Virus record (IMG/VR): IMGVR_UViG_3300043788_000134
Coordinates: 5,882-69,881 of that record
Reading direction: 5' to 3' (one strand)
DNA length: 64,000 nucleotides
Origin: a virus
The notes under the pieces were generated by a model. The model was not told the DNA's origin. It made no database searches and was given only the letters and a program-made list of their open reading frames with translations. Positions 3,371 through 63,106 of the stretch are shown piece after piece (position 1 is the stretch's first letter; each line of letters starts with the position of its first letter). Both the position numbers and the translations under genes were made by a program.

Positions 3371-3371
3371 G

Positions 3372-25870: not shown

Positions 25871-25906
25871 GTGTCACGAAGCCGCAGGGATTCCGGTGCG
25901 GTCAAC
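25871..25906 (+). repeat. PIR half-site, subtype A, forward
   Basis: gtgtcacgaagccgcagggattccggtgcggtcaac. Confidence 0.9.
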
Positions 25907-25933
25907 CGAGGTTGTTTGTAATAGGAGCCGAGA

Positions 25934-26125: not shown

Positions 26126-26163
26126 TGGAAGTGAACGCGATCCCTTCCAATAGGCAACGAAAC

Positions 26164-26355: not shown

Positions 26356-26398
26356 GGTGACCGATGACCCTCTCCCCCTCACTCCCCTCTCGTGATCC
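26356..26398 (-). repeat. PIR half-site, subtype B2, reverse
   Basis: ggtgaccgatgaccctctccccctcactcccctctcgtgatcc. Confidence 0.9.
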
Positions 26399-26472
26399 AA
26401 CGGACTTCTCTACCTCCTACGAACTTCTATGGGCCTGTTTCCTATCGGGTCAAATCAACAGCCGCCAATGGA

Positions 26473-26497
26473 ACGAACACTTGCAAGACGAACACTT
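26473..26497 (+). promoter_or_regulatory. tandem 10-bp direct repeats ACGAACACTT-N5-ACGAACACTT in a 5' leader
   Basis: exact copies at 26473-26482 and 26488-26497, 36 nt upstream of ATG 26533. Confidence 0.3.
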
Positions 26498-26532
26498 CGC
26501 GGCGTGGGTCGAAAAACAGGAAGGTACGCGTC

Positions 26533-27333: not shown

Positions 27334-27369
27334 GGGTCACGGAACCGCAGGGATTACGGTGCGGTCAAC
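27334..27369 (+). repeat. PIR half-site, subtype A, forward
   Basis: gggtcacggaaccgcagggattacggtgcggtcaac. Confidence 0.9.
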
Positions 27370-27405
27370 CACGTCGGAACGAGCAAACATCGGAAGTGGA
27401 CGTAA

Positions 27406-27618
27406 ATGACAACGCGTGAGAAACTGAGCAATTTGCAAATTGTCGTCATGCGCTCATTGGTGAAGCGCGGTGGCGCATACACGCCGATTTCGCTTTTAGC
27501 GTGGCAGCGAAGATCGACGTTGAATCTTTGGCATCGCGGCTTTGTCGAGATTTGGTATAAACAAGCAGCGGGGGGGCAGGGAATCGGCCACCCAATCTTT
27601 GCGCGGGCCATTTTATAG
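27406..27618 (+). CDS. hypothetical protein (70 aa)
   Basis: ORF track. Confidence 0.4.
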   Translation: MTTREKLSNLQIVVMRSLVKRGGAYTPISLLAWQRRSTLNLWHRGFVEIWYKQAAGGQGIGHPIFARAIL

Positions 27619-27699
27619 TTTAACCATCGCTGGCGCGGATTTGGCGCAGCGATTTATATACCGTGCGCCTCGGCGGTTCTCAGGGGCAGGAGAAACGAA

Positions 27700-27989
27700 G
27701 TGACCAGCCATCCTAATCGCGGCAACAAAGAATGTGCTGTACTTGTGACGACATCGCACCGAGGGGTATTCTTTGGCTACGCCAAAGATATTGAAGGCGA
27801 CATCATCAAACTTCGCGCAGGCCGGAACTGCCTTTATTGGAGCAGCGACGTGAAGGGGTTCGCTGGCCTAGCGGCGACCGGACCGAGCCCATCATGTCGC
27901 GTTGGACCTGCGGTGGATATCCAGCTTCGCGATATTACAAGCGTTTCTCTTGTCACCGCCGAGGCCGCAAAGGCATGGGAGGCGGCACC

Positions 27990-27999
<10 letters not shown>
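27700..27999 (+). CDS. conserved-looking small phage protein (99 aa)
   Basis: GTG start with GGCAGGAG RBS; ...VLVTTSHRGVFFGY...CLYWSSDVKGFAGLAATGP... Confidence 0.45.
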
Positions 28000-28685
<686 letters not shown>

Positions 28686-28705
28686 TCCTTTTATTGCAGC
28701 GAAAC

Positions 28706-28750
28706 GTTGACCGAATCCGGTAACGCCAACGGCACAACCTATCGTGATCC
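28706..28750 (-). repeat. PIR half-site, subtype B1, reverse
   Basis: gttgaccgaatccggtaacgccaacggcacaacctatcgtgatcc, then partial duplicate aatgatccaaaggg. Confidence 0.9.
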
Positions 28751-28778
28751 AGAGAATGATCCAAAGGGAGCACCAACC

Positions 28779-29210
28779 ATGACACAGACCGCAACCATTG
28801 AAGTGAAGCACGTCTATCCCCCGAAAGACGGCAAACAGTACGGTGCGATCCGCGGTGCCAACAACGATTCCTATCCGGTCAAGAAAGACCGCATCCACGA
28901 ATTTATGCCGGGCAACCGCTACGAGATCGCATGGACCGAGGGCAATAACGGCTTCAAGAACATCATCGGCGTCAAGCCGCTCAATGTGCCGGCGCCGCAA
29001 GCGCAAGGAACATTTTCCGCCATTCCGCCGCAGACCAACGGCCACGCTCATGCGGCCACTCAAGTTTCCAAGTCGGAAGAAATCTTCGTCTGCGGCGGTC
29101 TCTATCGCGACATCGAAAGCAATCGCGTCGGCGCATCGGAAGATGAACTTGTCGAGCGCACGATTTTGTGGCGTAACGTGTGGCGTCGTGCGTTTATGGA
29201 TGCGGTGTGA
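28779..29210 (+). CDS. hypothetical protein (143 aa)
   Basis: ATG 28779 after CCAAAGGGAGCACCAACC (same leader as ORF 25437). Confidence 0.5.
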   Translation: MTQTATIEVKHVYPPKDGKQYGAIRGANNDSYPVKKDRIHEFMPGNRYEIAWTEGNNGFKNIIGVKPLNVPAPQAQGTFSAIPPQTNGHAHAATQVSKSEEIFVCGGLYRDIESNRVGASEDELVERTILWRNVWRRAFMDAV

Positions 29211-29274: not shown

Positions 29275-29290
29275 AGCTTAGGAAAGCGAT

Positions 29291-29326
29291 GGGTCACGAG
29301 AGGGGAGGGATTACGGTGCGGTCAAC
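29291..29326 (+). repeat. PIR half-site, subtype A, forward
   Basis: gggtcacgagaggggagggattacggtgcggtcaac. Confidence 0.95.
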
Positions 29327-29360
29327 GGATCATCTTAAAGACCGCTGAATGAGGACAACA

Positions 29361-29959: not shown

Positions 29960-30050
29960 TGGACAAACAACGGTGACCGCGTATTTATCCCTTCACAGCA
30001 TTTAAAGGTTGTGGTAGTGGGTAAGTGCGGTCTCGCTAGGAGATCGCTAA

Positions 30051-31094
30051 ATGCGCGAATGTACAGGTTGGTACAACTTAGACCATTTAAATTGGGTCTA
30101 CGAAATCGAGGCCGCGGAGGCAGGGATGCGCGTTTCAGACAAGGTTCTGAAATGTGTGGTTTTCATTGGCGTTGAGAAGCCGGGTGGCTTCGAGCCAGTG
30201 GGGACCGGCTTCGTTGTAATGGTGCCGCAAGGACAGGTTGGCTTCCAATACGTCGTGACAGCGCAGCATGTGCTTGATGGCCTCAGAGAGCCAATTTCAA
30301 TCCGCGTCAATAGAAAGAACGGCGAAGCCGAGCCCATCAAGCCACCATTTGGATGGTATTACCATCCAGATAACAGTCGCTTTGTTGATGTTGCTGTCGC
30401 GCCAATTCTCCTGCAATTGGATACGTATGACGTTATCCACATTAAGATGAAGGATTTTTGTGATTTGCAGTTTTTGCTTGAACGTGACGTCGGAGTTGGA
30501 GACGAACTTTTTTATCCGAGTCTTTTTATGCACCGTCGCGGATTACACAGAAACCATCCAGTTATGCGGTTTGGTGAACTTGCAGCGATGCCGTTAGAGC
30601 CGGTCATAACAAGGTCAGGACCTATTTTGGCATACCTAATGGAAGGTCGCTCTATCGGGGGCCATAGCGGCGCGCCGGTTTTTATCAATTTTCTAGCACC
30701 CCGCACCTATTATTCAGATCAGGTTGTACAGCTTCCACATCCCAATCAGGCGCAAGGCTACCGATTACTGGGGCTGATTCGCGGCTTTCTAAAAGCGAAG
30801 GATACGGGCGAGTACATAACCGATGATCCGAAAGCAGAAGATTTGTGGATAAACTCTGGAATCTCAACTATCATTCCAACGTCAGAGATTTTTGAAACAC
30901 TCATGCAGGATGATCTTGTGCAGCAACGAAACGAACACGCAAAGAGAGTTATAGACGGTCTCGCCGACGTACCAGCAAGTGCGCGTCCCGCAAGCGATTC
31001 GAAGCCTTTGGACGGCGACGCCAATCCCAATCACCTAGCGGATTTCACACGTCTTGTAGACGTGGCAGCCCGAAAGCGGCCACAAGACGATTAA
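30051..31094 (+). CDS. trypsin-like (chymotrypsin-fold) serine protease, IS passenger
   Basis: 347 aa; His VVTAQHV, Asp FVDVAVAP, Ser GGHSGAPVF in canonical order. Confidence 0.6.
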   Translation: MRECTGWYNLDHLNWVYEIEAAEAGMRVSDKVLKCVVFIGVEKPGGFEPVGTGFVVMVPQGQVGFQYVVTAQHVLDGLREPISIRVNRKNGEAEPIKPPFGWYYHPDNSRFVDVAVAPILLQLDTYDVIHIKMKDFCDLQFLLERDVGVGDELFYPSLFMHRRGLHRNHPVMRFGELAAMPLEPVITRSGPILAYLMEGRSIGGHSGAPVFINFLAPRTYYSDQVVQLPHPNQAQGYRLLGLIRGFLKAKDTGEYITDDPKAEDLWINSGISTIIPTSEIFETLMQDDLVQQRNEHAKRVIDGLADVPASARPASDSKPLDGDANPNHLADFTRLVDVAARKRPQDD

Positions 31095-31941
31095 ACATCG
31101 CTTCATGTGAATTGCGGTAGTTGCGTCGATAGGTGAACTCGGCGACGTATTTCCACATGTGTTTCGCCGAAATATGGACGTGAGTGCCGCGTACTGCGCG
31201 CTTGAAATGTCCCCACTGTCCTTCAATCGTATTCGTGTGGTGGACGCCAGCAACCCATTGCTTCTTGCTGTGGTTGACGCGGCCAAGATCGAAGCCGTGC
31301 TTTAGATCGTTGTAGGAATCCCATTCATCCGCCGTGAGGCGAGTGCCTTCCTTGACGTGGCCACGCACGATGGACTCCAATGTGTCTTGCGAAAGGTTCG
31401 GAATCGGGCCAGCGCGCATTTTGCCGTCCCGTTCCACCATCCCGAACACAAGGCTCTTGTTCGATCCTTTAGTGCGGCGCTCGCGGTTGCTCTGATAACC
31501 GCCCATAACCGTTTCGTCGATTTCAACGTGCTTGCCATCGCCACCGAGAGGGCCGCCAAAGTCGGCCGACGCCATCAGCTTCCGCAGTTCGTGGCACATC
31601 CGCCAAGCGCACTTATAGGTCACGCCTAGCTGCCTCTGGACCTCCGCAGCGGCCACGCCATGGCGGGTGCTGGTCATGAGGTACATCGCGAAAAACCACT
31701 TGGTGAGGTTCGTGCGGCTCTTGTGGAAGATCGTACCGGCAGCCGGGTAAATGTGGTGGCCGCAATGCTGGCACACGAACGCCCGGCGCTTGGCGAGGGG
31801 ATGGAATTTCGAATCGGCGCCGCAGCCCGGGCAGGTGATTTCGGTCCCGCCGTAGTTCACCTCCATCAATTTACGGAGGCAGGCCGCGTCGTCCGGGTAA
31901 ATCGCCTGGAAGGCCTTAAAAGTGTGGGTTCCTGGCTTCAT
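31045..31941 (-). CDS. IS1595-family (ISXO2-like) DDE transposase
   Basis: N-terminal zinc ribbon CPGCG...CQHCGH, then VEIDETVMGG, LTADEWDSYN, NTIEGQWGHFKR motifs. Confidence 0.85.
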   Translation of the reverse strand: MKPGTHTFKAFQAIYPDDAACLRKLMEVNYGGTEITCPGCGADSKFHPLAKRRAFVCQHCGHHIYPAAGTIFHKSRTNLTKWFFAMYLMTSTRHGVAAAEVQRQLGVTYKCAWRMCHELRKLMASADFGGPLGGDGKHVEIDETVMGGYQSNRERRTKGSNKSLVFGMVERDGKMRAGPIPNLSQDTLESIVRGHVKEGTRLTADEWDSYNDLKHGFDLGRVNHSKKQWVAGVHHTNTIEGQWGHFKRAVRGTHVHISAKHMWKYVAEFTYRRNYRNSHEAMFNRLVAAFGLPRLQDV

Positions 31942-32011
31942 GACTATCCCCTACCCTCGATTGTGGGGATACCCTATCAACCCTTATAAATGCTGTCAAG
32001 GGATAAATACG

Positions 32012-32056
32012 CGGTGACCGATGATCCCCTCAGCAATCGCTCCGCGCAGATGACCC
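32012..32056 (-). repeat. PIR half-site, subtype B2, reverse (its inner end split by the IS; other copy of CGGTGACCG at 29971-29979)
   Basis: cggtgaccgatgatcccctcagcaatcgctccgcgcagatgaccc; ATG of ORF 32050 inside outer block. Confidence 0.9.
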
Positions 32057-32493
32057 AACCTAAACCCCAACGCATCACCCCGCCGGCGGCCCCAGGCGCA
32101 TTGCTCAAGCGTGCCTTCGGCCTCGCCCAGCGCATCAAACTCCGCGACAGCAACGATCGCGATCCAGTCTATCTGGCCTTAGTCCGGCAGTGTCCTTGCC
32201 TCAAATGCGGAATGGACCCGTGTGGCGAAGCGGCTCACGTCCGATTCAACTCCGGCGCCCACGGCAAGCACAACGGCTTAGGCAAAAAGCCTGCCGATCG
32301 CTTCGCGCTGCCGCTTTGCGCCGGCTGTCACCGCGAAGATAACGACGCGCAACACAAAATCGGGGAACTTGAATTCTGGAACCGCGTCGGGCTTAATCCA
32401 ATTCTCACCGCGGCAAAGCTTTACGCCGCCAAAGGCGACATCGTGCGAATGCGTGCGGTCGTGTTTGCTGTAGTAGCATCGCGACGATCCTGA
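32050..32493 (+). CDS. DUF968 / P1 Ref-like Zn-finger HNH-type protein
   Basis: CPCLKCG...AAHV...GLGKKPADRFALPLCAGCHRE..DAQH pattern (recalled, not searched). Confidence 0.5.
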   Translation: MTQPKPQRITPPAAPGALLKRAFGLAQRIKLRDSNDRDPVYLALVRQCPCLKCGMDPCGEAAHVRFNSGAHGKHNGLGKKPADRFALPLCAGCHREDNDAQHKIGELEFWNRVGLNPILTAAKLYAAKGDIVRMRAVVFAVVASRRS

Positions 32494-32780: not shown

Positions 32781-32937
32781 TATTTCCTCGTGACGGTTCT
32801 GACTATCCTCTCTGGCTTTTGCTCTCCACCAAGAAAGCATTATTTCGTTGCATGGAGGACCCGGAGCTGGAAGATGCGCGATCCAGGAGCGTGAGTGAGG
32901 GGACTTTAGTCCTACGAAAATAATTTGTATGGGCCTA

Positions 32938-32966
32938 TTGACTTGTTAGCGGACAACGCGTTTATA
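32938..32966 (+). promoter_or_regulatory. sigma70-type promoter
   Basis: TTGACT (32938-32943), 17-nt spacer, TTTATA (32961-32966); 27 nt upstream of ATG 32993. Confidence 0.5.
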
Positions 32967-32992
32967 GCGATTGTTGAGAACGGGAGAACGCG

Positions 32993-35282: not shown

Positions 35283-36335
35283 ATGCCAAGCATTCAGCTT
35301 GCGGCGAAAGATCGAGACATCGTCGCCTCCCTCTGGACAAAAGCGGACGGCGCATCCGAGAGCCAGCGCATCGACGCTATTGAGAAGCAGATCGGGCGTT
35401 CGCTTACACGCGGCTGGTGTCGCCTTCATTTCGGCTTTCCGGGAGGCAAGCAAACCGTTTTCCTAGCAAAGAAATCGCCTGCCGAAATTCGCAGGAAAAA
35501 TGCTGGCCGATGGCCTTACCAGCGCGCTGCTACCGGGGAAGTAATGCACGTCGGCATGAACTATTTGTCGGAGCTAGTCGTGCGTCCCGGCATTCGCAAA
35601 TATCTTGAACCGCTCTGCCTCTACCGTGGACAAATGAGCCCAGGGCACGCGCACCGGTATTGGAATTTCGTTCTGCTTATGATGGCAGCCGAAGCCGAGA
35701 CGCTTGCCGACGGGATTAGACTTTACGGTAATGAGGCGTTCGCCCAACTGTGCGGCCCACAGCGGGCGCCATCTCGGATGACGCTGCATAGTTTCTTCGG
35801 GCGGCTTTGGGACAATCGAGACGTGACGGATGAAATATCCGGACTGACCGATTACGTTCGGTCTCTCGAAATCGGGCCGTGCCGCCTAGCGCCGGTCCCT
35901 CACGTCACTCAAGAACGCTATTGCGCGTCATGGCGCATTTCCGATCATCCTGAATGGGACCCGAAGGCAGAACGTCCCGAGAGCGGCGTTCGTGCCCTTT
36001 ATTATCCCTATCTGGCCCACAATCCCAAGAAGCCGGACGACGGCCGCGACCTTGTCTTGCTTGCCAATTCGCTGGTCCCAACTTACTGGCCCGATTTTGC
36101 CCGCGCCGATCTGTGTCAGGAACTCATCGTCGCGATTCTCTCCAGCGAAACGACCAAAGAGAACGCTCACGACTACATGCAAAAGGCTAAGCGAAAATTC
36201 TTTAAGGATCAGCCGTTCCTTTATGAACAGGGTCAGCTTGCGCCAAAATCCATGGACGCTCCTTTCGGAGCAGAAGATGATCGAACACTACATGACGTTA
36301 TAGCGGATCGTCTGACAATGGACGTAGAGCCATGA
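35283..36335 (+). CDS. hypothetical protein (350 aa) coupled to the recombinase gene
   Basis: ATG 35283 with GAGGAG RBS; stop overlaps integrase start (ATGA, 36332-36335); no motif recognised. Confidence 0.5.
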   Translation: MPSIQLAAKDRDIVASLWTKADGASESQRIDAIEKQIGRSLTRGWCRLHFGFPGGKQTVFLAKKSPAEIRRKNAGRWPYQRAATGEVMHVGMNYLSELVVRPGIRKYLEPLCLYRGQMSPGHAHRYWNFVLLMMAAEAETLADGIRLYGNEAFAQLCGPQRAPSRMTLHSFFGRLWDNRDVTDEISGLTDYVRSLEIGPCRLAPVPHVTQERYCASWRISDHPEWDPKAERPESGVRALYYPYLAHNPKKPDDGRDLVLLANSLVPTYWPDFARADLCQELIVAILSSETTKENAHDYMQKAKRKFFKDQPFLYEQGQLAPKSMDAPFGAEDDRTLHDVIADRLTMDVEP

Positions 36336-37282
36336 ACCTCTCCGCGCTCATTCACGATTACCGTGCCGACACGGCATCGCCTTACGGCAAGCTGCGGATC
36401 GGCACGCGCCAGCGATACGATTCGCTGCTGCGCCGGATCGAGCGTGATCTAGGCGAGCGCGATGTCAGCACGATCAAGGGCCGCGACCTGACGGTGGCCT
36501 ACGAGGAATGGGCCAAGAGCGGTGTTCCCATGGCCCACGGCTTGATGCAGATGCTTCGGACGATAGCTGGCTACGGTGCCACGCTGCTCGATGACGAAGC
36601 CTGCGCGACGCTGGCAACGAAGATGCGGTTCCTTCGGTTCAAGATGGGCCAGCCGCGCCAGGTCAGGATCACGGCACCCCAAGTGGTCGCCATCCGCCGG
36701 CAAGCGCACCTGATGGGCCTGCACTCAATCGCCCGCGCGCAAGCCCTGCAATTCGAGGGGACGTTTCGCCAAAGGGACGTGATCGGGGAATGGGTGCCGA
36801 TCTCCGAGCCCGGCGAAAGCTATGTGGAGTGGGAAGGCCGGAAGTGGCTTCGCGGGCTGCGGTGGGAAGAAATCGACGCCGACCGCGTGCTTCGCCACAT
36901 CACTAGCAAGAAGCAAAAGGAAGTCGAGATCGACCTTAAGCTGGCCGATATGGTGATGCAGGAGTTCGGCGCCGTCGAGTGGCCGAAGCGCGGCCCCGTC
37001 ATCACCGCCGAAGCGACCGGCAAGCCTTGGACCGCCGTCGAGTTCCGCCGCATGTGGCGCGTCGTGGCGCGCGAAGCGGGCATCCCTGATGAGATCAGGA
37101 ACATGGACTCCAGGGCCGGCGCTATCAGCGAAGCCACCGACGCGGGCGCGAGCCTCGAAATGGTGCGCCACGCGGCAACGCACTCTGATGTGGCGACAAC
37201 AGCGCGCTATAGCCGCAACGCGCCGGACAAGATCAAGGAAGTTCAACGGCTACGATTGCAGCATAGGGAAACAACGCCATGA
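36332..37282 (+). CDS. tyrosine recombinase / integrase
   Basis: 316 aa; TFRQRD (Arg), DSRAGAISE, MVRHAATHSDVATTARYSR (His...Tyr) C-terminal catalytic pattern. Confidence 0.75.
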   Translation: MNLSALIHDYRADTASPYGKLRIGTRQRYDSLLRRIERDLGERDVSTIKGRDLTVAYEEWAKSGVPMAHGLMQMLRTIAGYGATLLDDEACATLATKMRFLRFKMGQPRQVRITAPQVVAIRRQAHLMGLHSIARAQALQFEGTFRQRDVIGEWVPISEPGESYVEWEGRKWLRGLRWEEIDADRVLRHITSKKQKEVEIDLKLADMVMQEFGAVEWPKRGPVITAEATGKPWTAVEFRRMWRVVAREAGIPDEIRNMDSRAGAISEATDAGASLEMVRHAATHSDVATTARYSRNAPDKIKEVQRLRLQHRETTP

Positions 37283-41860: not shown

Positions 41861-42045
41861 ATGAACTTAATCGCATGATCGCCGAGGTGCAGGAGTGGCG
41901 CGAGTTTCACCAGGCGCAATTCCAGCGTGGCATTAAGGGCGCCTCAATCGAGGCGGCGGCGTGCGCAATACGTGAACGGGCGCTTCTCGACGCCCGTGCC
42001 GCGCTCGTAGCTCAGGGGATAGAGCAAGGGCCTTCTAAGCCCTAG
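41857..42045 (+). CDS. hypothetical protein (62 aa); last 15 codons overlap the tRNA
   Basis: ATGA overlap upstream; no stop until inside tRNA-Arg. Confidence 0.35.
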   Translation: MNELNRMIAEVQEWREFHQAQFQRGIKGASIEAAACAIRERALLDARAALVAQGIEQGPSKP

Positions 42046-42076
42046 GTCGGCAGTTCGATTCTGTCCGAGCGCACCA
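42001..42076 (+). tRNA. tRNA-Arg (anticodon TCT), CCA encoded
   Basis: manual cloverleaf: acceptor GCGCTCG/CGAGCGC, D arm GCTC-AGGGGATA-GAGC, anticodon arm AGGGC-CTTCTAA-GCCCT, variable AGGTC, T arm GGCAG-TTCGATT-CTGTC, discriminator A, CCA. Confidence 0.9.
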
Positions 42077-43385: not shown

Positions 43386-43395
43386 GGCGGTATTT

Positions 43396-43430
43396 GGGTC
43401 ACGAGAGGCCGGGATTACGGTGCGGTCAAC
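43396..43430 (+). repeat. PIR half-site, subtype A, forward
   Basis: gggtcacgagaggccgggattacggtgcggtcaac (identical to 8563-8597). Confidence 0.95.
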
Positions 43431-43435
43431 GCGCG

Positions 43436-47871: not shown

Positions 47872-47913
47872 GGGTCATGGGGTGACTCTTTGGGGAGTGA
47901 TTCGCAAGCCTTT

Positions 47914-47961
47914 GGATCACGAGAGGGGAGAACGTGTGGATAGTCCGGTTCGGTCACCGTT
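47914..47961 (+). repeat. PIR half-site, B1-like, forward
   Basis: ggatcacgagaggggagaacgtgtggatagtccggttcggtcaccgtt. Confidence 0.85.
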
Positions 47962-48405: not shown

Positions 48406-49476
48406 GCGGTGGCTTTACCCGCGCAATACGCGCCATTATTTCCTCAAATCTCATGCCGGCGCGAAATGGCGAACGCGCGACGATGCCCTTGGTCACGCGA
48501 TCAGTCCTTTATAGGTCAGACGACCTTCGACTTCGGAGCAAAATTGTTTGATGCGCTCCCCGCCGCTCATACCGCGTCGACTCATGCGCCATGCCATTTC
48601 GTCAAGGTATTTTTGCAAATGTTTTGGCGATACCCAATGATGGGTGCCATTAATTTGCCGCTTCAATTGCGACCAAACGGCCTCAATCGTTTGTGTGTTT
48701 GCTTCTCCACTCCGGCCTTCACCCTTAGAATGATTGACCATCGCGTGCTTTGCAACATCTAAACTGCGATAGGCGCGTCCCGAATCCGTCACCAACTCAG
48801 CATCGGGTGACACGATATCGTCGACAAACTGCTGCGCTTCCGGCTTACCAAGACCTAGCGGCGCAACCCGCGCCACAACCCGACCCTTACGTTCGGCCGC
48901 AGCGATGACTTGCGTTTTGCCGTAGGCACTTTTGCCGCCGCTACCGAAAAAACCATCATCCACTTCAACAACTCCAGAAAGCGGCTTATTAAACGACTTG
49001 TTTCGCGCGGCGTAGCGAAGACGGTGAAGAACAAACCACGCGCTAGGCTGAGAAATGCCTAAATCCTTAGCCAGGGTCGTAGATGCAATCCCTTTTGGGT
49101 GATTAGCCAAAAGCCATATCGCGCCGAACCATATCCGCAGCGGCAATTTGGTATCGCCAAAGATCGTTCCGACGGTCACAGAAAAATTGCTGCGGCATTT
49201 GCTGCACTTATAGGCTTTTTTTCCTGCCTTTTGTATTGTGTAGATTTTCTCACGAGAAGCACAGTAGGGGCAGAACTTGCCGTCTTTCCATCGGATGGCC
49301 GCAAAATATTCCACGGCGGCTTCTGGCTTGCGAAAAGCAATCATCAAATCCGGCAGCGTTTTGAATTGGTCAATCATCGTCCGCTCCACTCTGTTTACGC
49401 AATCATAATACCGCGAAAAAGCCCGGTGTCAACATCTATCTAGGCCTGTATCGCGGTATTGCCACCAGTCCACCGC
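48406..49476. mobile_element. second IS1595-family element, boundaries tentative
   Basis: transposase ORF plus weak imperfect inverted repeats gcggtggctttacccgcgcaatacgcg (48406-48432) and cgcggtattgccaccagtccaccgc (49452-49476); no target duplication seen. Confidence 0.3.
48493..49389 (-). CDS. IS1595-family (ISXO2-like) DDE transposase
   Basis: zinc ribbon CPYC...CSKC, VEVDDGFFG, LVTDSGRAY, NTQTIEAVWSQLKR; same architecture as 31045-31941 but divergent. Confidence 0.85.
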   Translation of the reverse strand: MERTMIDQFKTLPDLMIAFRKPEAAVEYFAAIRWKDGKFCPYCASREKIYTIQKAGKKAYKCSKCRSNFSVTVGTIFGDTKLPLRIWFGAIWLLANHPKGIASTTLAKDLGISQPSAWFVLHRLRYAARNKSFNKPLSGVVEVDDGFFGSGGKSAYGKTQVIAAAERKGRVVARVAPLGLGKPEAQQFVDDIVSPDAELVTDSGRAYRSLDVAKHAMVNHSKGEGRSGEANTQTIEAVWSQLKRQINGTHHWVSPKHLQKYLDEMAWRMSRRGMSGGERIKQFCSEVEGRLTYKGLIA

Positions 49477-50012: not shown

Positions 50013-51560
50013 TTAGCCTTTCCTAAAACGACCATTCGGGTGACCGTGTTGCGCCCCACTATCCACAGGCCTCTCATGACCCACATCTTCCTTGCCCTTT
50101 CGCCCCGATTCAGGCTTAATCCCTCCCCCATGCGCAAAGCCCTGCTTTTGGCGTACTGCACCGCCTGTATTTTGCTGTTGTTCTACCCCTGGAACGCTGT
50201 TTTGCTGGGCCTGTGCTTCTACCGCAGCCGGGCCTTGGACGAATGGGCGTACCGCCTGTGCCAAGGGCGGAAGCGCCAAGCGCCCTCCGCTCAAGTCGGG
50301 CCGCGCCGTCTGGGCCATAGCAGCGGCTTGCCGCTGCTGTCCCAGGGGCGACCGCATACGGATCGATTCACCGAGATCGGCGGCTTTTCCCATCGCCATG
50401 GAATTCGACATCTTGCGGAGCGCCCAACCGGCGATCGGAGCTAAGGCAGTCACCCCATGAGTCGCTAGTGCTCCCATGCCGTACATCGCCGTCAGCAATC
50501 CGCCGCCGCCGCCCAAGATATTTCCCGCGTGGCGCATGGTATTTTCAAGCGGCGTTCCCTCCGCGATTTGCCTAACCTGATCCATTTCATCGGGTGTTAG
50601 GCCCCGTCCGAGCTTCGGATTGCTCGCAATATCGACCATGCGCTGGCGAATCGTATTGGCGATATTCATCCCGGAGTTTGCCGCCTTGGCGCGCAAATAC
50701 GCCTTGGTCATCCGCTGATCCAAATCCGCCGCCCGCGCCATGGCCGCATAGTTGCCATTGGCTTGCTGTAGGATTTGCGCCGCAGCTTGCGGATTACCTT
50801 GAATCACGTCCGCAGCGGGCAGATTGGATAGAAACTCGTCAAGGTGTTGTTGCGCCGACTTAGCCGCCAGCCGTTCAGTCGGATCAATTGAGCCGGCCGC
50901 ATTTCCCAACGTGCGGCGCAGACTACGCAGATTATCCACCGTCAAGAACGGCTGCGGACCTCCATCATCGCCTTGGGGCACTTTTTCAAGCTTGCCGAGG
51001 ATGCCAAAGGTTTTCGGCGCGAGATTTTCGTCGATCCCAGCTTCATTCAAATTGGTTTGGATTTCTTGACTGAGGCGCGGCCCCGCCGCCGCGTGAATCT
51101 GCACGTTTGCGACCGTCGGCGATTCGTAGCCGGCAACGGCCGCACCCTTTAATTCCGGGATAGTTGGTGCTGTTGCTTCTCCGACGGAACGCGGCGTCAA
51201 AGCAACACCGGCAACACCTTCGCCCGCCCGGGCGGCCACTGACGAAGGACTGGTAAAGCCCGCTAGGCTGCTCGCCCTGTCAGCTATTTCTGCATTCGTT
51301 GCTTGCAGCCGAGCCTCATCTTCGTCCGACCACATGCCGGGCTTGCTTGGCACAACATCGGTCGCGCCCGACGCGACATCACCCGGCAATGTTGCTCCTT
51401 GATAGGCACTTTTGACCAATTGCGCCGGCCACGTCTGCATGAGCTTCTGGCCGACCGACGGTGCCTGTGCCGCGGGTTCCGAAGGAGAATCGCTCGGCAA
51501 CGTAAAAGCCTGCGGTGCCGCGGGCGCGTCGCTCGGCAATACAAAATCGTCGGGCATCAC
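50013..51560 (-). CDS. virion internal / tail-associated protein (515 aa)
   Basis: overlaps stop of 1156-aa gene; C-terminal GFAHGGGIKP motif; last ~20 codons read through PIR 50039. Confidence 0.4.
   Translation of the reverse strand: MMPDDFVLPSDAPAAPQAFTLPSDSPSEPAAQAPSVGQKLMQTWPAQLVKSAYQGATLPGDVASGATDVVPSKPGMWSDEDEARLQATNAEIADRASSLAGFTSPSSVAARAGEGVAGVALTPRSVGEATAPTIPELKGAAVAGYESPTVANVQIHAAAGPRLSQEIQTNLNEAGIDENLAPKTFGILGKLEKVPQGDDGGPQPFLTVDNLRSLRRTLGNAAGSIDPTERLAAKSAQQHLDEFLSNLPAADVIQGNPQAAAQILQQANGNYAAMARAADLDQRMTKAYLRAKAANSGMNIANTIRQRMVDIASNPKLGRGLTPDEMDQVRQIAEGTPLENTMRHAGNILGGGGGLLTAMYGMGALATHGVTALAPIAGWALRKMSNSMAMGKAADLGESIRMRSPLGQQRQAAAMAQTARPDLSGGRLALPPLAQAVRPFVQGPAAVEAQAQQNSVPGVEQQQNTGGAVRQKQGFAHGGGIKPESGRKGKEDVGHERPVDSGAQHGHPNGRFRKG
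50039..50082 (-). repeat. PIR half-site, B-like, reverse
   Basis: ggtgaccgtgttgcgccccactatccacaggcctctcatgaccc. Confidence 0.8.
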
Positions 51561-55598: not shown

Positions 55599-56392
55599 GA
55601 CTTTGCCGGCCCCGGCAACTTCCGAAGCGTGCGGATGTGCTCCCTGCGATTGGCTTTCACCCATTCATCCAGAATCCGATGTCCACGATCGATATCGCCA
55701 CCGCCCACCGCGGCAACATCGGTCGGACTGATCGAGAATTCTCCGCCCGCCGCCATGATCGGCACATTGCCGCCGCCGCTTCCGCGAGCACCGCCACGGT
55801 CGCTCATCGTTCGCGGCGGCATCGCGCCACGTCCCATCGGCGCCGAACGCTGCACCGAATTTGGAAACATGCGGCTCAGGATTTTCATACCTGCGAGCGT
55901 ATTGCCTTGACCGAGCGAACTGACGTGATCCGCAGGCAGTATATACGAAGACGAAGGAACATCGATGGCGTGATTATCAGTTCGCCCCGGCACCGCGCTC
56001 AGTATCGGCCCGGTATGAGCCAGACTCTGCGCTTCGTTGCGGACATAAAACGGCATCTGCCCCACGCCTGCGGTAGCTCCGCCATCGGCCTTGAGCGCCG
56101 ACAAGTTCGGCCGCGAGAAACCAAGACCGCGGGCTTCGTTGCGGACGAAGAAAGGCGGCGACGCCGTCGGCGGCTTGAACGGCGCCACCGGTTTCGGGAT
56201 GGAGATTTTAGGAGCGGTGCCGCCCATGGCGCGCGTGGCTTTGCGTGCCACGTTCAAAGCGATAGCCACGGCCTGCTTGTCGGCTTTTTCTTTTCCGAAC
56301 TTCGCTGCCGTATGAGCGAACGTTTTTCCCGTATGCAGTTCACGGATGTTTTCCGACACTGCGTTTTTACTTCCTGATTTAATCAATGGCAT
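55595..56392 (-). CDS. virion-module protein (265 aa)
   Basis: N-terminal SKNAVSENIRELHTGK...; duplicated FFVRNEA / FYVRNEA segments; xGG motifs. Confidence 0.4.
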   Translation of the reverse strand: MPLIKSGSKNAVSENIRELHTGKTFAHTAAKFGKEKADKQAVAIALNVARKATRAMGGTAPKISIPKPVAPFKPPTASPPFFVRNEARGLGFSRPNLSALKADGGATAGVGQMPFYVRNEAQSLAHTGPILSAVPGRTDNHAIDVPSSSYILPADHVSSLGQGNTLAGMKILSRMFPNSVQRSAPMGRGAMPPRTMSDRGGARGSGGGNVPIMAAGGEFSISPTDVAAVGGGDIDRGHRILDEWVKANRREHIRTLRKLPGPAKS

Positions 56393-56394
56393 GT

Positions 56395-56430
56395 GGTGAC
56401 CGCACCGTTATCGCTCCGCGTTCGTGATCC
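56395..56430 (-). repeat. PIR half-site, subtype A, reverse
   Basis: ggtgaccgcaccgttatcgctccgcgttcgtgatcc; abuts ATG 56392. Confidence 0.85.
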
Positions 56431-56437
56431 AAAGCAA

Positions 56438-56842
56438 CTACGCCGGATTCACAATGCCATATAGAAACGTCTCCGATCCCGACGCCACGCCCGTTGCCGT
56501 GGACACCACGAATCCCGATCCTGCGGTGACCACCGACAGATAAAGCCCGTGATTGAGCACTGTCAACGCTGCCGTGAGATTCGTCGGCGCCCATAGGGGA
56601 AAACCTCCGCTTTTCAAGCCGGTCTGGCTGATCGTCGTGGTAGTGGCGTTGGCAAGCGTGAACGATCCCATGGCCTGCGGGAATACGTTGATGATCGCGG
56701 TCGCTACCGCGGCGATGGCGGCGACGAGATTGGCGTTGCCGGTGACAAGCGAAGTTCCCAACGCCTGGATTTGCGCCGCCTCGTTCGAGATATTGGTGAC
56801 GATGCCCTTGAGCGTCGAATTGATGTCGTCGGGGGAGGCCAT
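56438..56842 (-). CDS. Ala/Thr-rich virion protein (134 aa)
   Basis: ORF track; GGAGG RBS. Confidence 0.4.
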   Translation of the reverse strand: MASPDDINSTLKGIVTNISNEAAQIQALGTSLVTGNANLVAAIAAVATAIINVFPQAMGSFTLANATTTTISQTGLKSGGFPLWAPTNLTAALTVLNHGLYLSVVTAGSGFVVSTATGVASGSETFLYGIVNPA

Positions 56843-56856
56843 GGCTCAGGTTTTAT

Positions 56857-56891
56857 GGGTTACGAGAGACAGGGATTATGGTGCGGTCAAC
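56857..56891 (+). repeat. PIR half-site, subtype A, forward
   Basis: gggttacgagagacagggattatggtgcggtcaac. Confidence 0.9.
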
Positions 56892-56937
56892 GTTGACCGA
56901 ATCCGGCGCAATTCCAACGAAAGCCCTCTCGTGATCC
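56892..56937 (-). repeat. PIR half-site, subtype B1, reverse
   Basis: gttgaccgaatccggcgcaattccaacgaaagccctctcgtgatcc; directly abuts PIR 56857. Confidence 0.9.
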
Positions 56938-56941
56938 AAAG

Positions 56942-58987
56942 CTACCTCCTGCCTACTGACTGCTGGTACCGATATCTTACCTTACCCAATCGCCAGAAGC
57001 TTCCCGTATCTAAGTTCTGCACTTCAATCGCCATCTGCCGTCCCCGCATCCGCGTGGTAAAAAACTCCGTGCTTGACGTGACGCTATAGGGTCCAAACAC
57101 CTGCGGCGAATCGCCTGGATAATTTACGACATAGAACGTCATGAGGATAGTCGCACCGCTTGTTCCGGGATAAAATCCCCACTTGAAATCCGGGTAAATC
57201 TGATCGACCATCACGAAGTCTTCGCCTTCGGCAATCATGAAATACCCCGTCGTAAACGAGGCATTGAGCGCCGCACCGGCGGCATCGTTGGTCGTTTCGT
57301 GCTGATAGACGTTGCCTTGCGGCGTCGCTGCGATCGGCATTCCCAACGCGCCCTGATCGATCCAAGCCGAGCGCGACAACGACCCGTAGTCCCATGGCGC
57401 ATTCGGTTCGGTGATGTTCATCTTGACGTAGGAATCGCATTCGCCGGTCGCCGAGGCGCTTGACGGAAACAGCCAGCCGCATTCGTTAAACGGCGTATTC
57501 GGCATGGCACGCACATTTTGCGTATAATTCAGGTTTATGTTCTGAAACACAAAATCCCATACCGAACACGGCAGCACCGCTACACCATTTGACGTGAGCG
57601 CATAGAAATTATTCTGCCCCATCCAATAGACATTCCCGCGCAAACTTTGCACCGCATGCGAGGAAATCGCCCCAGCCCCAGCCCCGATTTGGTTGAAGCC
57701 AAACACATCGGGAGGCCCTATATAATTCATCGCCCACAAGTCCAAATCCGTCCAGATCAAGTCCTGGTTGGCAACTGCTGCCCCTGCCATGATCTTCGAG
57801 CCGCGCGGAATACGGAACGATCCGGCTTGGTCGGTCGCCAGTACGGCAAAATTCGTATAGTCGCCAACCGTGGACCACTTGACCAGCAACGGGTCCTGAA
57901 TCACGCCGATATCTTCATTCGTGGTGGAAGCCCAGCAGATCAAAACTTGCTGTGTCGTCGAAACGAAAATGCCGCCATTGAACGGCGGTGCTGTTGCGAC
58001 CAATCCGGCATTACTGAATCCGCCAGTCGGATCGTATTGATAGACACCGCCGCCCTTGGGACACTCCAAAAGAATCTCGCCCCAATTGTCGGATGTCCAA
58101 TCGGCCGCCGTGATCGGCGTACCGACCTGTGACGTTCCACCGGCAGTCCCCAGACCGTAAAGCCCAGCCCCATAGGCGCCGATGCCGTAGCCTTGCCCGG
58201 CCAGCGTCGGCCCAAGATTGAGATAATAGACCACCTGCGCCGAGCCGTTGTTCATGCGCAGCACGGTTGTTGCGCTGGCCTGTGCCGCCGCCGAAATGGA
58301 AAAATTGTTGGCGTCCGTGATGGACAGCGCGGAGTAGTCCCCGGAAATCGTAATGCCATCGCCGGTTGTTGGAATCGGAAAGACCACCGTGCTCCCGGCC
58401 GACAGGCCATGCGTCGCGATATTCACCGACACGATTTGCGAATTAAGAGTAGGCGTGAATGTCGGAACCGTACCCGTGCCGGTCGCGCTTGATATCGCAG
58501 GCGTCGGCGAATTGATCGTATAGCTGGATGCTCCTGTGATAGAGACGAGCGGGAACAACCCCGACAGTACAATGCCGCCGACCGAGACCGGCGTATCCAG
58601 CAGCACGGCGTCGAAGATTGTGACATTGGCGATATTGGTGTCGGTCACCGTGACAGTGGTCGAATTGGCGACGGTAGAAAACCCGTTGCTGAAATTCGAC
58701 GTGAGGATTTGCGGCGTGATGGTCGCCACCGCACCTGACGTGATGATTTGTAAGCCGTTGGTGGCGCCGATCGCCAGGTGGCCGAGGTTATCGAGGTCAT
58801 CCCACCCGTGCAGATCGCGCGGCGTCGTCGCCACCGTGAACTGATAATAGGGTGTCCATCCGCCGTATTTCTGGATCAGTGAATCCTTGTAGCGGATCAA
58901 TTGCGAGGCGGAGACGCCCGCCTCGTTCAAGGTCGGCGTTCGCTCGGTATTGACTCCGGGAATGAGCTCGACTTCGCCGAATGGCAT
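56942..58987 (-). CDS. large tail structural protein (681 aa)
   Basis: size and position between fibre genes and internal proteins; no motif recognised. Confidence 0.4.
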   Translation of the reverse strand: MPFGEVELIPGVNTERTPTLNEAGVSASQLIRYKDSLIQKYGGWTPYYQFTVATTPRDLHGWDDLDNLGHLAIGATNGLQIITSGAVATITPQILTSNFSNGFSTVANSTTVTVTDTNIANVTIFDAVLLDTPVSVGGIVLSGLFPLVSITGASSYTINSPTPAISSATGTGTVPTFTPTLNSQIVSVNIATHGLSAGSTVVFPIPTTGDGITISGDYSALSITDANNFSISAAAQASATTVLRMNNGSAQVVYYLNLGPTLAGQGYGIGAYGAGLYGLGTAGGTSQVGTPITAADWTSDNWGEILLECPKGGGVYQYDPTGGFSNAGLVATAPPFNGGIFVSTTQQVLICWASTTNEDIGVIQDPLLVKWSTVGDYTNFAVLATDQAGSFRIPRGSKIMAGAAVANQDLIWTDLDLWAMNYIGPPDVFGFNQIGAGAGAISSHAVQSLRGNVYWMGQNNFYALTSNGVAVLPCSVWDFVFQNINLNYTQNVRAMPNTPFNECGWLFPSSASATGECDSYVKMNITEPNAPWDYGSLSRSAWIDQGALGMPIAATPQGNVYQHETTNDAAGAALNASFTTGYFMIAEGEDFVMVDQIYPDFKWGFYPGTSGATILMTFYVVNYPGDSPQVFGPYSVTSSTEFFTTRMRGRQMAIEVQNLDTGSFWRLGKVRYRYQQSVGRR

Positions 58988-61474: not shown

Positions 61475-62991
61475 TAGTTTATCTGAAACACTTTCATGGT
61501 TGATCCGGGAAGCACGACGGTGGTCGCAGTCGTGGCGGCGGCTTGCGCAATCTGCGGGTAGAACACGGTTGCCGTTCCACTCGATAGCGTGCCCACAACA
61601 CGAATCGTCGGCGTTGTCGCACTCGTCGAAGTTGCCACAGCAACCCCAATTGTGGTCGCACGCCCCTGCGCTACCAACGAACCGCCTGAATAGCTTTGCG
61701 CGTCATAAATGACGGAGGCGGGCGTCGTATTCGTTTGGAACGCAAGTTGCGTGCCACCCGTCGCACCGGCGGTGCAATACAAGATCGCCTCGAAAAAATA
61801 ATTGCCATTGCTCGCAACCGCGACAGACAACGCCGGAACCTCTGCCAGAGTCGTCGTGGATACGACATTGAATGCCGTGGTCACCCGCGCAAAGCCGACA
61901 TCGCTCTTGATAAAGCCGTTGACATCGAGGGTGGCGGAGGGAGTGGCGGTGCCGATGCCAAGCACACTGACCACAGCCGTTCCTGCGACGCTGACTAATG
62001 CACTTCCGACAACCGTTGTGCCAACACCAAGCGCAGTAAGCGACGCGGTTCCGCTAACATAAAGCACCGTTGACGCAGGCGGGGATGACGTGCCGATGCC
62101 GACGTTCCCAGTACCCGTTATGAAAACCCGTAGTGTGTTGCCGGTACCAAACTCAATACCATTTCCAGCTTCATCGTTAAGGCCGACAGCATAGGGCTGC
62201 CCGTTATTCATTAGAAAGGCATCGGCACCTTCAACACCTAAGTAGCCTATCCCTGTCGTGTTTCTCAAATCCAGGTAAGCCACACTAGTCGCATTAACCG
62301 ACGAGAAATAGGCTATCGCAAAATCTTCACTTAGCTGTTTAACGGCCAGATTTGTTACGGACTCAGGTGCAATTCCTATTCCAACCGGACCATTAAATTG
62401 TGTCGTCGAATTAAAGATATGTTGCCCAGTCCACGTCGGTGTAATGGCCTGCGACAGCGGCGGCGCGGCATCGCTCCGCATCCCTGTGGTTGCCGCACCA
62501 TTGACCGCAACAAGCCCGACGGTGCCCGTCGGATTAGCCAACCCCGCAAACGTCGCTATCGCCGTATTGAGCGCAATCGTGATTGTGGTCGCGTTGCCGG
62601 TCGTGAACAGCCCGTTGCCGACGCCGACGAAGTTTGTAATGCTCTGCCAGCTTGAAATATAATTCGAGCCGCTGGTCTTGGCGAGGATTTGCCCAGTGCC
62701 GCCGCCCGCCGGAAGATTGCCCGCCGCCACGCCGAGGTTGCCGACGAGCGTTGCCATCGGCAGGCCCGAGGACGCCTGCAGGAACGTCACCATGTCCGAT
62801 GCGGCAGGCACCGCGTTCGGCAGCACGCCCGGCACCTTGCCGACCATGTTGGTGACAAGATCGTAATAGGTCGCCGCCGCCGTTGCGGTTGCCGACGTGA
62901 CCAACAAAAAGATTTCACTGCCGGTATATTGCAGCGCGCCCGGCTGGTAAGGCGGGAACGAGGGGAATGTGCCGGGAGTGGGGGTCGCCAT
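61474..62991 (-). CDS. tail fibre-like protein (505 aa)
   Basis: GGGTGQILAKTSGSNYISSW motif common in fibre proteins; Ala/Thr/Gly-rich. Confidence 0.55.
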   Translation of the reverse strand: MATPTPGTFPSFPPYQPGALQYTGSEIFLLVTSATATAAATYYDLVTNMVGKVPGVLPNAVPAASDMVTFLQASSGLPMATLVGNLGVAAGNLPAGGGTGQILAKTSGSNYISSWQSITNFVGVGNGLFTTGNATTITIALNTAIATFAGLANPTGTVGLVAVNGAATTGMRSDAAPPLSQAITPTWTGQHIFNSTTQFNGPVGIGIAPESVTNLAVKQLSEDFAIAYFSSVNATSVAYLDLRNTTGIGYLGVEGADAFLMNNGQPYAVGLNDEAGNGIEFGTGNTLRVFITGTGNVGIGTSSPPASTVLYVSGTASLTALGVGTTVVGSALVSVAGTAVVSVLGIGTATPSATLDVNGFIKSDVGFARVTTAFNVVSTTTLAEVPALSVAVASNGNYFFEAILYCTAGATGGTQLAFQTNTTPASVIYDAQSYSGGSLVAQGRATTIGVAVATSTSATTPTIRVVGTLSSGTATVFYPQIAQAAATTATTVVLPGSTMKVFQIN

Positions 62992-62993
62992 TT

Positions 62994-63029
62994 ATGTCAC
63001 GATAACCTTGTGATTACGGTGCGGTCATC
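62994..63029 (+). repeat. PIR half-site, subtype A, forward (diverged outer block)
   Basis: atgtcacgataaccttgtgattacggtgcggtcatc. Confidence 0.7.
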
Positions 63030-63056
63030 GTCCTTCCTTCATTCAAAAAGAAAGAA

Positions 63057-63100
63057 CGGTGACCGACGATTCTCTCCGCACACGCTCCGCTCACATGATA
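63057..63100 (-). repeat. PIR half-site, subtype B2, reverse (diverged outer block)
   Basis: cggtgaccgacgattctctccgcacacgctccgctcacatgata. Confidence 0.7.
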
Positions 63101-63106
63101 CAAAAC

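Follow-up and report, generated by a model that had tools for sequence, protein, structure and literature searches.

How do small accessory genes enter and leave the conserved modules of tailed phages? Mechanisms for such gain and loss are known for very few systems, and the question is raised in a concrete form by a short intergenic locus in a 64,000-nt stretch of viral DNA (IMG/VR record IMGVR_UViG_3300043788_000134, positions 5,882 to 69,881; hereafter the window), which comprises the bulk of a novel tailed-phage genome. At 56854-56940, between a 134-aa gene and the gene for a 681-aa virion protein, two copies of a two-box repeat, here termed half-sites, face each other through their inner ends with nothing between them. 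An initial annotation of the window described four such abutting pairs, together with six pairs in the same arrangement that hold genes between their inner ends, and read them as empty and cargo-filled states of a dedicated acquisition site. The observation of paired half-sites at all ten loci is confirmed, and relatives of this phage differ in what lies between the inner boxes; the dedicated cassette-acquisition reading is partly supported. Where genes have been gained, lost or replaced, the exact borders lie at members of this repeat family, even in the arm of the genome that carries the head, portal and tail genes. Direct observations comprise the anatomy of the repeat, its position rules, its confinement to one clade, the polymorphism and the location of breakpoints at inner ends.

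Two orientations are distinguished throughout: F copies carry their outer box toward a gene transcribed in the same direction, and R copies are the same element inverted. Three half-sites lie at or beside the focal locus:

56854-56892, minus strand: F half-site, type 1, of the focal pair; 16 nt separate its outer box from the ATG of the downstream 134-aa gene (56438-56842)
56891-56940, plus strand: R half-site, type 2, of the focal pair; outer box directly against the TAG that ends the gene of the 681-aa virion protein (56942-58987)
56394-56433, plus strand: solo R half-site following the stop codon of the 134-aa gene; the ATG of the next gene (56392) lies 2 nt beyond the inner box

The abutting inner boxes of the focal pair form GGTCAACGTTGACC, in which GGTCAAC followed directly by GTTGACC makes a perfect palindrome of 14-16 bp, noted from the start as one of 14 bp. 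This zero-spacer palindromic junction is kept in a relative at 86% identity (L229). Other relatives show other states: c43205_5 carries the R copy alone; c50821_3948 has no R and carries an element of the IS1595 insertion sequence (IS) family and small open reading frames (ORFs), followed by F, the transposase (56279-57220) being 54% identical to an IS1595 transposase of the window; and in an 80% relative the two focal-locus genes are separated by 1 nt, which leaves no room for a half-site (gene coordinates only). Half-sites therefore vary singly at this locus, and the focal pair is thus itself an optional insertion. A filled form of the focal pair, with DNA between R and F, was never seen among the compared relatives.

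Anatomy and placement of the half-sites

Each half-site consists of two boxes within 32-50 bp. The inner box reads cG(G/T)TGACCG, which in the form CGGTNACCG is almost its own reverse complement, and the outer box reads CTCTCGTGAYCCAAA, or in full CTCTCGTGA(C/T)(C/A)CAAA; GTGAC is present in both, making each half-site internally a direct repeat. Copies fall into three length classes, of which two exceed the shortest by 8-10 bp, and each class is found in both orientations: type 1 (~32-33 nt) contains …CCGCACCGTAATC…, type 2 (~42 nt) contains …CCGA(A/G)TCCGG…, and type 3 (~40 nt) frequently has CTCATGACC as its outer box. A strict half-site pattern matches the window 9 times against 0.02 expected, and a two-box position weight matrix gives 27 hits against 0 in each of 10 shuffles; the window count of ~29 copies consists of these 27 hits and two weaker copies added by hand. 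Copies inside one genome can be near-identical (98% over 40 nt), and the one at 43393-43431 is 95% identical to those at 6722 and 8560.

Position statistics were compiled from 132 copies (70 F, 62 R) across the window and 10 stitched relatives, and the outer box always lies against a gene end. In F copies it ends 4-37 nt before the start codon of the co-directional gene (median ~27 nt), and in R copies it starts 0-10 nt, typically 0-7 nt, past the stop codon of the preceding gene. Type-3 F copies have the start codon inside the outer box, as at the epimerase gene (6399), whose product has a Rossmann-type N-terminus. The order along transcription is F-gene(s)-R, F-gene(s)-R, such that what the initial annotation termed cargo is the DNA from an R to the next F. 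With every outer box facing a gene, half-sites that share an intergenic space can only stand head-to-head, and all 20 neighbour pairs closer than 288 nt among the 132 copies are indeed joined in this way via their inner boxes; tail-to-tail or tandem neighbours are never nearer than 288-300 nt and have at least one gene between them. Half-site midpoints lie inside called genes in 5/29 cases, though the window is 88% coding. Half-sites are missing from the 11.3-kb early array of small ORFs in the window (32.1-43.4 kb) and also, on maps judged by eye, from the equivalent arrays of relatives, an absence that favours a transcription-class-specific signal over a repeat landing in any gap.

A few start codons near half-sites are unusual in their own right. 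Those within the type-3 outer box (6397-6399 and 32050-32052) or 2 nt past an R inner box (56390-56392) have no Shine-Dalgarno sequence, which hints that some genes near half-sites may rely on leaderless or Shine-Dalgarno-independent initiation.

Structural readings of the repeat were also considered. Single half-sites have no fold signal on either strand (z ~0), and a search of Rfam gave no match to the half-site, the only hit at E ≤ 1 being one tRNA; on these results an RNA motif or ribozyme was rejected. A hairpin was rejected as the hallmark of type 2, as many copies can pair in their variable middle but an entire subfamily (GGCGGCAAAGAACAAACAAAC) cannot, and a 5'-3' panhandle between the F and R copies around one unit was rejected after direct reading of the partner outer boxes, which do not covary. 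Abutting pairs, spanning 77-107 bp, do fold as hairpins (z -1.2 to -4.3), with no U tract. The spacers between the inner boxes of empty pairs are 0, 13, 13, 13, 19 and 26 nt, with neither length nor sequence in common.

Gain, loss and replacement of DNA between inner boxes

All four abutting pairs of the initial annotation are present in the window, with spacers here of 0 (the focal pair), 13, 19 and 26 nt. The three others are composed as follows:

17300-17348, minus strand: F half-site, type 2, of the empty pair upstream of the portal gene
17362-17401, plus strand: R half-site, type 1, of the same pair; 13-nt spacer (extended boxes)
22542-22589, minus strand: F half-site, type 3, of an empty pair; 19-nt spacer to the R at 22609-22648
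22609-22648, plus strand: R half-site, type 1, partner of the F at 22542-22589
62991-63030, minus strand: F half-site, type 1, inner box ATGACC, of an empty pair; 26-nt spacer, itself palindromic
63057-63104, plus strand: R half-site, type 3, partner of the F at 62991-63030

The six filled head-to-head pairs were likewise all located where they had been described, and they are listed here with their cargo and the conserved genes that two of them interrupt:

5134-5180, minus strand: F half-site, type 3, before the gene of the B12-radical SAM protein; forms the right end of a filled interval
5438-5477, plus strand: R half-site, type 1, after the epimerase gene; cargo is a 70-aa ORF (5192-5404)
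6390-6437, minus strand: F half-site, type 3; the epimerase gene (5479-6399) starts inside its outer box
6722-6760, plus strand: R half-site, type 1; cargo is a DUF7736 ORF (6449-6733)
25437-29210, plus strand: three conserved genes (helical 142-aa, exonuclease-like 266-aa, OB-fold 143-aa), interrupted by two cargo intervals
25868-25907, minus strand: R half-site, type 1, after gene 25437-25865
25908-26354, plus strand: cargo of two small ORFs, GC 0.46
26355-26401, plus strand: F half-site, type 3, before the exonuclease-like gene (26533-27333)
27331-27370, minus strand: R half-site, type 1, after gene 26533-27333
27371-28704, plus strand: cargo of a 70-aa ORF, a DUF6948 ORF and a Gly-Tyr repeat ORF
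28705-28753, plus strand: F half-site, type 2, before the OB-fold gene (28779-29210)
29288-29327, minus strand: R half-site, type 1; left end of the 29.3-32.0 kb interval
29971-32020, no strand assigned: IS1595-family element with terminal inverted repeats, a 347-aa passenger ORF and a transposase (31045-31941)
32012-32059, plus strand: F half-site, type 3; ORF 32050-32493 starts inside its outer box
47911-47959, minus strand: F half-site, type 2; end of the filled 47.9-50.0 kb interval
48493-49389, minus strand: second IS1595-family transposase, inside the 47.9-50.0 kb cargo interval
50038-50085, plus strand: R half-site, type-3-like, within the 3' end of ORF 50013-51557

Further copies in the window are these:

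3322-3371, minus strand: solo F half-site, type 2
8560-8598, minus strand: solo F half-site, type 1; the TGA of the upstream gene lies inside its inner box
13501-13539, minus strand: F half-site, type 1
14850-14898, plus strand: weak R half-site, type 2, downstream of the portal gene; position conserved in relatives
21891-21930, minus strand: solo F half-site, type 1
24620-24668, minus strand: F half-site, type 2
25386-25425, plus strand: F half-site, type 1, forming a unit with a 119-aa ORF (25032-25391)
43393-43431, minus strand: solo F half-site, type 1

The cargo was said to be often lower in GC, and 5 of the 6 intervals do fall under the window mean of 0.573 (range 0.46-0.55), the sixth standing at 0.585. 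The IS1595 transposase reported in the 47.9-50.0 kb cargo is there (48493-49389), and so is the IS reported in the 29.3-32.0 kb interval, although its placement needs correction: it sits in the inner box of the half-site at 32012-32059, with a 9-bp direct repeat, CGGTGACCG. The ends of both IS1595 elements are unrelated to the half-sites. No consensus promoter or terminator is evident within the cargo (consensus scan). A rule whereby cargo ORFs end at the TGA of the F inner box was tried and dropped, such ends occurring at 16/65 F copies and 9/56 controls, which is not significant. Two ORFs at or within cargo intervals have features of their own. The 514-aa ORF 50013-51557 runs for ~25 codons through the half-site at 50038-50085 before its stop, which suggests that this half-site may have replaced the original 3' end of the ORF. 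The cargo ORF 27975-28685 contains repeats of 12/18-nt period at 28000-28400 that code for Gly-Tyr, Gly-Ser and Gly-Asp, and has a 66% identical homologue in c44714_24.

When relatives are compared, as the initial annotation had proposed, the cargo between paired half-sites proves polymorphic, by presence and absence or by replacement, and the flanking genes are syntenic. The smallest case is that of L002 and L013 (~92% identical), which share one R/F pair with 12 nt in one and 194 nt in the other between the inner boxes, the flanks aligning up to the boxes; the extra DNA of L013 encodes a 60-aa ORF. Its ribosome-binding site comes after the R inner box, and the TGA within the F inner box serves as its stop codon. 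For the 25-29 kb region, the closest relative compared by DNA is L227 (~82% identical). Homology between it and the window runs through gene 25437-25865 and its R half-site, ends at 25912 and resumes at 26356, where the F inner box begins; in L227, the 443 nt in between are replaced by 236 unrelated nt with an unrelated 61-aa ORF. Homology ends again at 27369, the inner end of the next R, and resumes at 28750, as the 1.3-kb cargo and its F are missing from L227, and the unit of the 119-aa ORF plus F (25032-25425) is absent as well. No cargo and no half-sites separate the three conserved genes in L167 and c50821_3948, where these genes are contiguous.

Similar variation is found at other loci. 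The portal-upstream pair, empty in the window, holds a homologous 128-nt small ORF in c43205_5 and c37840_153. The junction between homologues of genes 8593-9540 and 7710-8543 exists in four states, namely nothing (c43777_67), a solo F (the window) and two R-cargo-F arrangements (c37840_153 and c50821_3948) whose cargos are mutually unrelated. Between L019 and c43777_67 (~90% identical), a 179-nt ORF of L019 is inserted exactly after the inner box of a solo R, with direct repeats of the inner sequence GTGCGGTYACC on both sides (GTGCGGTCACC … GTGCGGTTACC), and c43777_67 carries a unit of a 45-aa ORF plus F that L019 is without. Breakpoints thus fall within a few nucleotides of inner boxes in three independent comparisons of close relatives, from a sample of ~10 breakpoints, and no target-site duplication is present at any pair. 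Core genes make up 6/30 of the genes between inner ends and 76/154 elsewhere (Fisher p = 0.004) in the structural arm of six genomes that is fully covered; over all partial contigs, the enrichment of accessory genes is not significant.

The empty/filled polymorphism and the inner-end breakpoints bear out part of the original proposal, while a dedicated cassette site as such is not demonstrated by them. Six core genes lie within head-to-head intervals, and most accessory genes lie outside such intervals. At several junctions, the absent state has no half-site whatever (L167, c43777_67). The initial annotation had also named cargo found elsewhere without repeat flanks as evidence against insertion sites, and such a case exists: homologues of the DUF6948 and Gly-Tyr cargo ORFs occur in c44714_24 (55-66% identical) with no half-site or isolated box within kilobases.

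One explanation compatible with much of this holds that the half-sites are purely regulatory repeats with no role in recombination, the transcriptionally insulated DNA from R to F merely letting random illegitimate insertions survive more often. The strict rule of placement at stops and starts agrees with it, as do the frequent accessory genes outside head-to-head intervals, the cargo module that lacks flanks elsewhere, and the indels between L019 and c43777_67, 2/4 of which lie away from any half-site. Against it are the replacement by unrelated cargo with both breakpoints within ~5 nt of inner boxes, the joint gain or loss of units of an ORF plus F, and the concerted similarity of copies within a genome. 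These three features are more easily explained if the repeats take part in exchange, and we consider a purely regulatory role unlikely.

The phage clade and its candidate enzymes

The window encodes a large terminase (18138-19925), a portal protein (15090-17333) and an endolysin, with ejection/tail and virion proteins at 50-63 kb; it derives from a JGI contig of 69,881 bp. Genes run leftward over 1-24.9 kb, rightward over 25.0-42.0 kb and leftward from 42.2 kb on. No near match to the window exists among deposited phages (INPHARED), the nearest isolates being ~40% identical at the protein level, and the relatives originate in soil, peat and groundwater metagenomes. No contig with the exact protein of the 134-aa gene was found, and a metagenome scan returned relatives at ≤68% identity only. 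Relatives at 80-87% are contained in ERZ1426829. Among the window proteins scanned, no DNA polymerase, primase or helicase was recognised, and only a DnaD-like loader (20888-21694), a DHH phosphoesterase and the exonuclease-like and OB-fold genes were found.

Several features of these genomes merit a separate record. A tRNA-Arg(TCT) gene (42001-42076) sits exactly at the convergence of the rightward and leftward gene blocks. The structural arm holds, amid half-sites, genes for a B12-binding radical SAM protein, an RmlD-like epimerase and a SPASM radical SAM protein (3372-8543), 0/3 of which have a homologue in five related genomes; the trio looks like an accessory metabolic or modification module. 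The divergent region between gene blocks at 24886-25031 contains TGTGATAAT, extended -10-like and preceded by an outer-box-like GGATCACGAAG, and its counterpart in L227 (1200-1345) retains TTTGTGATAAT; a canonical-looking TTGACT-N17-TTTATA lies at 32935-32975. The relative L029 (IMGVR_UViG_3300044714_000124), which is free of half-sites, has 7 copies of a 44-nt unit, GTTGCGGCCCGGCTCGCCGGGG.GGAAGCGAGAT, at 1117-1614 with a period of 73-75 nt, which looks like an iteron array or a CRISPR-like array.

The half-site family is limited to phages whose terminase is 58-67% identical to that of the window. The type-2 pattern occurs at 62 loci in ~30 viral contigs, mostly of 57-67 kb, with ~6 estimated by chance, whereas relatives with 50-62% identical structural proteins have 0-2 regular-expression matches per locus, the background rate, and no substitute repeat. 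The search of 185,579 bacterial and archaeal genomes gave one type-2 hit, at chance level (~1.5 estimated), from which the half-site is taken to be phage-borne. This sole hit lies in a metagenome-assembled genome of the Tepidisphaeraceae (DASXMX010000381.1; L226 233-273), with a vapBC-like antitoxin/PIN toxin pair 31 nt downstream, and its middle contains a 7-bp hairpin. Host identification from it was rejected, the match being at the chance estimate and at best a weak clue.

This distribution bears on a second explanation, in which the pairs are non-autonomous transposons of the type of miniature inverted-repeat transposable elements (MITEs). MITEs such as the Correia elements of Neisseria are ~100-bp intergenic elements with inverted ends beside genes, and they can give rise to transcript hairpins and possibly to outward signals. 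Here the outer boxes would be the terminal inverted repeats, the abutting R-F pair the minimal element, cargo pairs larger versions, and solo copies decayed halves. The abutting pairs resemble such elements in size (77-107 bp), in their inverted ends, for which the outer boxes qualify as terminal inverted repeats, in hairpin potential and in their location at gene boundaries. Subfamilies are near-identical within a genome, whole R-cargo-F units are present or absent against a half-site-free state (L167), and the focal pair is apparently absent from the 80% relative (gene spacing); outward signals at both ends would, moreover, make an insertion non-polar either way. Unlike MITEs, however, the pairs lack a target-site duplication, a fixed unit and an interior of fixed length, and their two arms differ in type and length. 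Half elements are functional-looking and precisely placed, with solo F copies as frequent as pairs and located precisely at start codons, and early-gene arrays hold no copies despite their many intergenic gaps. No partner transposase was found: the terminal repeats of IS1595 are unrelated, and no other transposase was present among the proteins scanned, which did not include every small ORF. With only the one chance-level hit in bacterial and archaeal genomes as well, a MITE-type origin appears quite improbable to us.

As for enzymes that might act on the repeats, the following gene was examined alongside the three conserved genes at 25437-29210:

36332-37282, plus strand: divergent tyrosine recombinase, the only recombinase besides the IS transposases

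The helical, exonuclease-like and OB-fold genes are present in 5/5 half-site-bearing genomes examined and at 0 half-site-free loci. The exonuclease-like gene matches phrog_10477; the OB-fold protein, modelled with a predicted local distance difference test (pLDDT) score of 79, gives weak fold matches to IF1, CSP, LEF-3 and RecO; and the model of the 142-aa protein (pLDDT 55) is too poor for a structure search. The trio is a candidate phage module for recombination and single-stranded DNA.

The initial annotation held that no dedicated enzyme could be assigned. No cognate enzyme was found, in agreement with that statement, yet the window does encode the tyrosine recombinase. It lies 4.3 kb from the nearest half-site, in a half-site-free stretch, its relatives occur in 27 contigs that are all half-site-free, and a homologue is present in 1/5 half-site-bearing genomes (partial coverage). 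With no link to the half-sites, it was rejected as the cognate enzyme, and is read as an ordinary, if divergent, phage integrase.

A third explanation nonetheless invokes such an enzyme: a dedicated, site-specific, integron-like system in which the near-palindromic inner box (CGGTNACCG, or the joined GGTCAAC and GTTGACC of the focal pair) would be the crossover site of a phage or host recombinase, and cassettes would be inserted, excised and exchanged there. The core sites of integron attC elements have the consensus GTTRRRY. In favour of this idea, the 77-107 bp of an abutting pair form an imperfect palindrome, in the size range of attC, with two complementary box pairs and a variable centre; GTTGACC resembles the core, agreeing with GTTRRRY at 6/7 positions; and the cargo consists of small, apparently promoterless ORFs. 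The proximity of breakpoints to inner boxes in three close comparisons, the direct repeats around the L019 insertion, the conservation of the focal palindrome in L229 and the presence of a tyrosine recombinase in the window point the same way. In contrast with integrons, in which cassettes lie between successive palindromes, the cargo here lies in the palindrome centre, the sites are scattered over the genome instead of forming a single array, and an IntI-type integrase is lacking, as are an attI site and a Pc promoter. Empty-pair spacers of 0-26 nt share no conserved core, filled sites hold only the two resident inner boxes and no third, recombinant one, lone half-sites occur in either orientation at the same locus, and a cargo module exists elsewhere without flanks. 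Given also the distribution of the recombinase described above, we regard this third explanation as unlikely.

Mechanism of exchange and relation to known systems

The explanation we favour, and which could about equally well prove right or wrong, is that half-sites are lineage-specific punctuation for gene expression and at the same time supply portable homology for modular shuffling. It is preferred because copies are placed strictly at starts and stops, are confined to non-early regions and are near-identical within a genome, because R-F pairs can fold as hairpins, and because breakpoints lie at the repeats. F copies would serve as a phage-specific promoter or leader signal, and the inverted R copies would mark the end of a unit. 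Where an R stands next to an F, the long imperfect hairpin so formed could attenuate or process read-through RNA. With ~30 similar copies per genome and the same families in co-infecting relatives, the repeats would supply short portable homology, and recombination inside an R and inside the next F would swap, add or remove the DNA between the inner boxes. The exonuclease-like/OB-fold module of the phage or host functions may catalyse such exchange, the products of which would be the empty and filled states. Both the transcriptional role and the homology-driven exchange are thus inferred.

A number of observations weigh against this explanation. With regard to expression, the TTGACC-like inner box lacks a suitably spaced sigma-70-like -10 element, TCTCGT being the hexamer found 17 nt downstream, and the box spacing differs between half-site types, so that a promoter role of F is unproven. 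If F were a promoter, R would fire antisense into the preceding gene. A capsid-like gene has an F copy in two relatives and none in the window; F copies, not being conserved at orthologous genes, are therefore dispensable. With regard to exchange, the flanking copies are inverted, such that simple recombination would invert the cargo and not excise it, and two crossovers with a second genome would be needed. Breakpoints lie at the very edge of the inner box and are not spread through the arms, which looks more site-specific than homology-driven, and the off-site indels of the L019 comparison add to these difficulties. Finally, the co-occurrence of the exonuclease and OB-fold genes with half-sites may be phylogenetic only. 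Promoter readings were also sought more widely: sigma-70, extracytoplasmic-function and sigma-54 readings in either orientation were discarded, as none suits all three types, and a consensus promoter scan gave no promoter excess.

A bolder conjecture takes the inner box as the crossover site of some site-specific recombinase, within an integron-like cassette system dispersed over the genome, with ~10-15 docking sites per genome set within the expression punctuation and small ORFs moving in and out; we rate this a long shot. Empty and filled alleles of the same site already exist in public data, for an uncultivated clade of soil and groundwater phages, and they make a choice between homology-driven and site-specific exchange testable, as they do a probable new class of phage expression signal.

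The half-sites may usefully be set against other short repeats and accessory genes. The repetitive extragenic palindromic (REP) sequences of bacterial chromosomes, with the bacterial interspersed mosaic elements (BIMEs) and REPINs built from them, lie just past stop codons and form inverted pairs of unlike subtypes with short variable linkers. Half-sites likewise are extragenic, lie past stops and form inverted pairs of unlike types with variable linkers. They differ in that single copies are not palindromic (z ~0), they are phage-borne and not host-borne, and no RAYT (Y1 transposase) domain was seen among the scanned proteins. The morons of lambdoid phages are accessory genes between conserved genes, often lower in GC, with their own promoter and terminator. 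The cargo described here agrees with them in being accessory, polymorphic, atypical in composition and placed between conserved genes; unlike morons, which bring their own promoter and terminator, it sits inside a shared inverted repeat. Mycobacteriophages carry dozens of oriented short repeats, the start-associated sequences (SAS) and stoperators, at gene starts or in short intergenic gaps, much as half-sites do. SAS and stoperators keep one orientation relative to transcription and are not known to bound indels, whereas half-sites occur in both orientations and do bound them.

The closest likeness is to the promoter-early stem-loop (PeSL) cassettes of T4-type phages, in which recombination between repeated promoter/terminator motifs drives indels and replacements with no dedicated recombinase; a PeSL combines a sigma-70 consensus promoter with a G/C stem-loop, and PeSLs form direct repeats in hyperplastic early-gene regions and generate mini-circles (PMC2839356, PMC4122927). 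Both systems place short repeated intergenic motifs around small, mostly orphan genes, in both the indels and replacements between close relatives end at the motif, and in both the repeat acts, or would act, as portable homology with no dedicated recombinase known. The differences are substantial. Half-sites have two boxes and no recognisable -10, and single copies are unstructured. Copies that flank cargo are inverted, not direct, so that a partner genome is needed and a simple loop-out of a circle is not available. The early array contains no half-sites, which are numerous in the structural arms, and they belong to a podovirus-like genome of ~70 kb. They thereby make the repeat-shuffling model derived from T4 testable in a second, unrelated architecture, and the best overall reading is that they represent an inverted-repeat variant of repeat-mediated modular shuffling, on the PeSL principle of T4, in a new phage clade.

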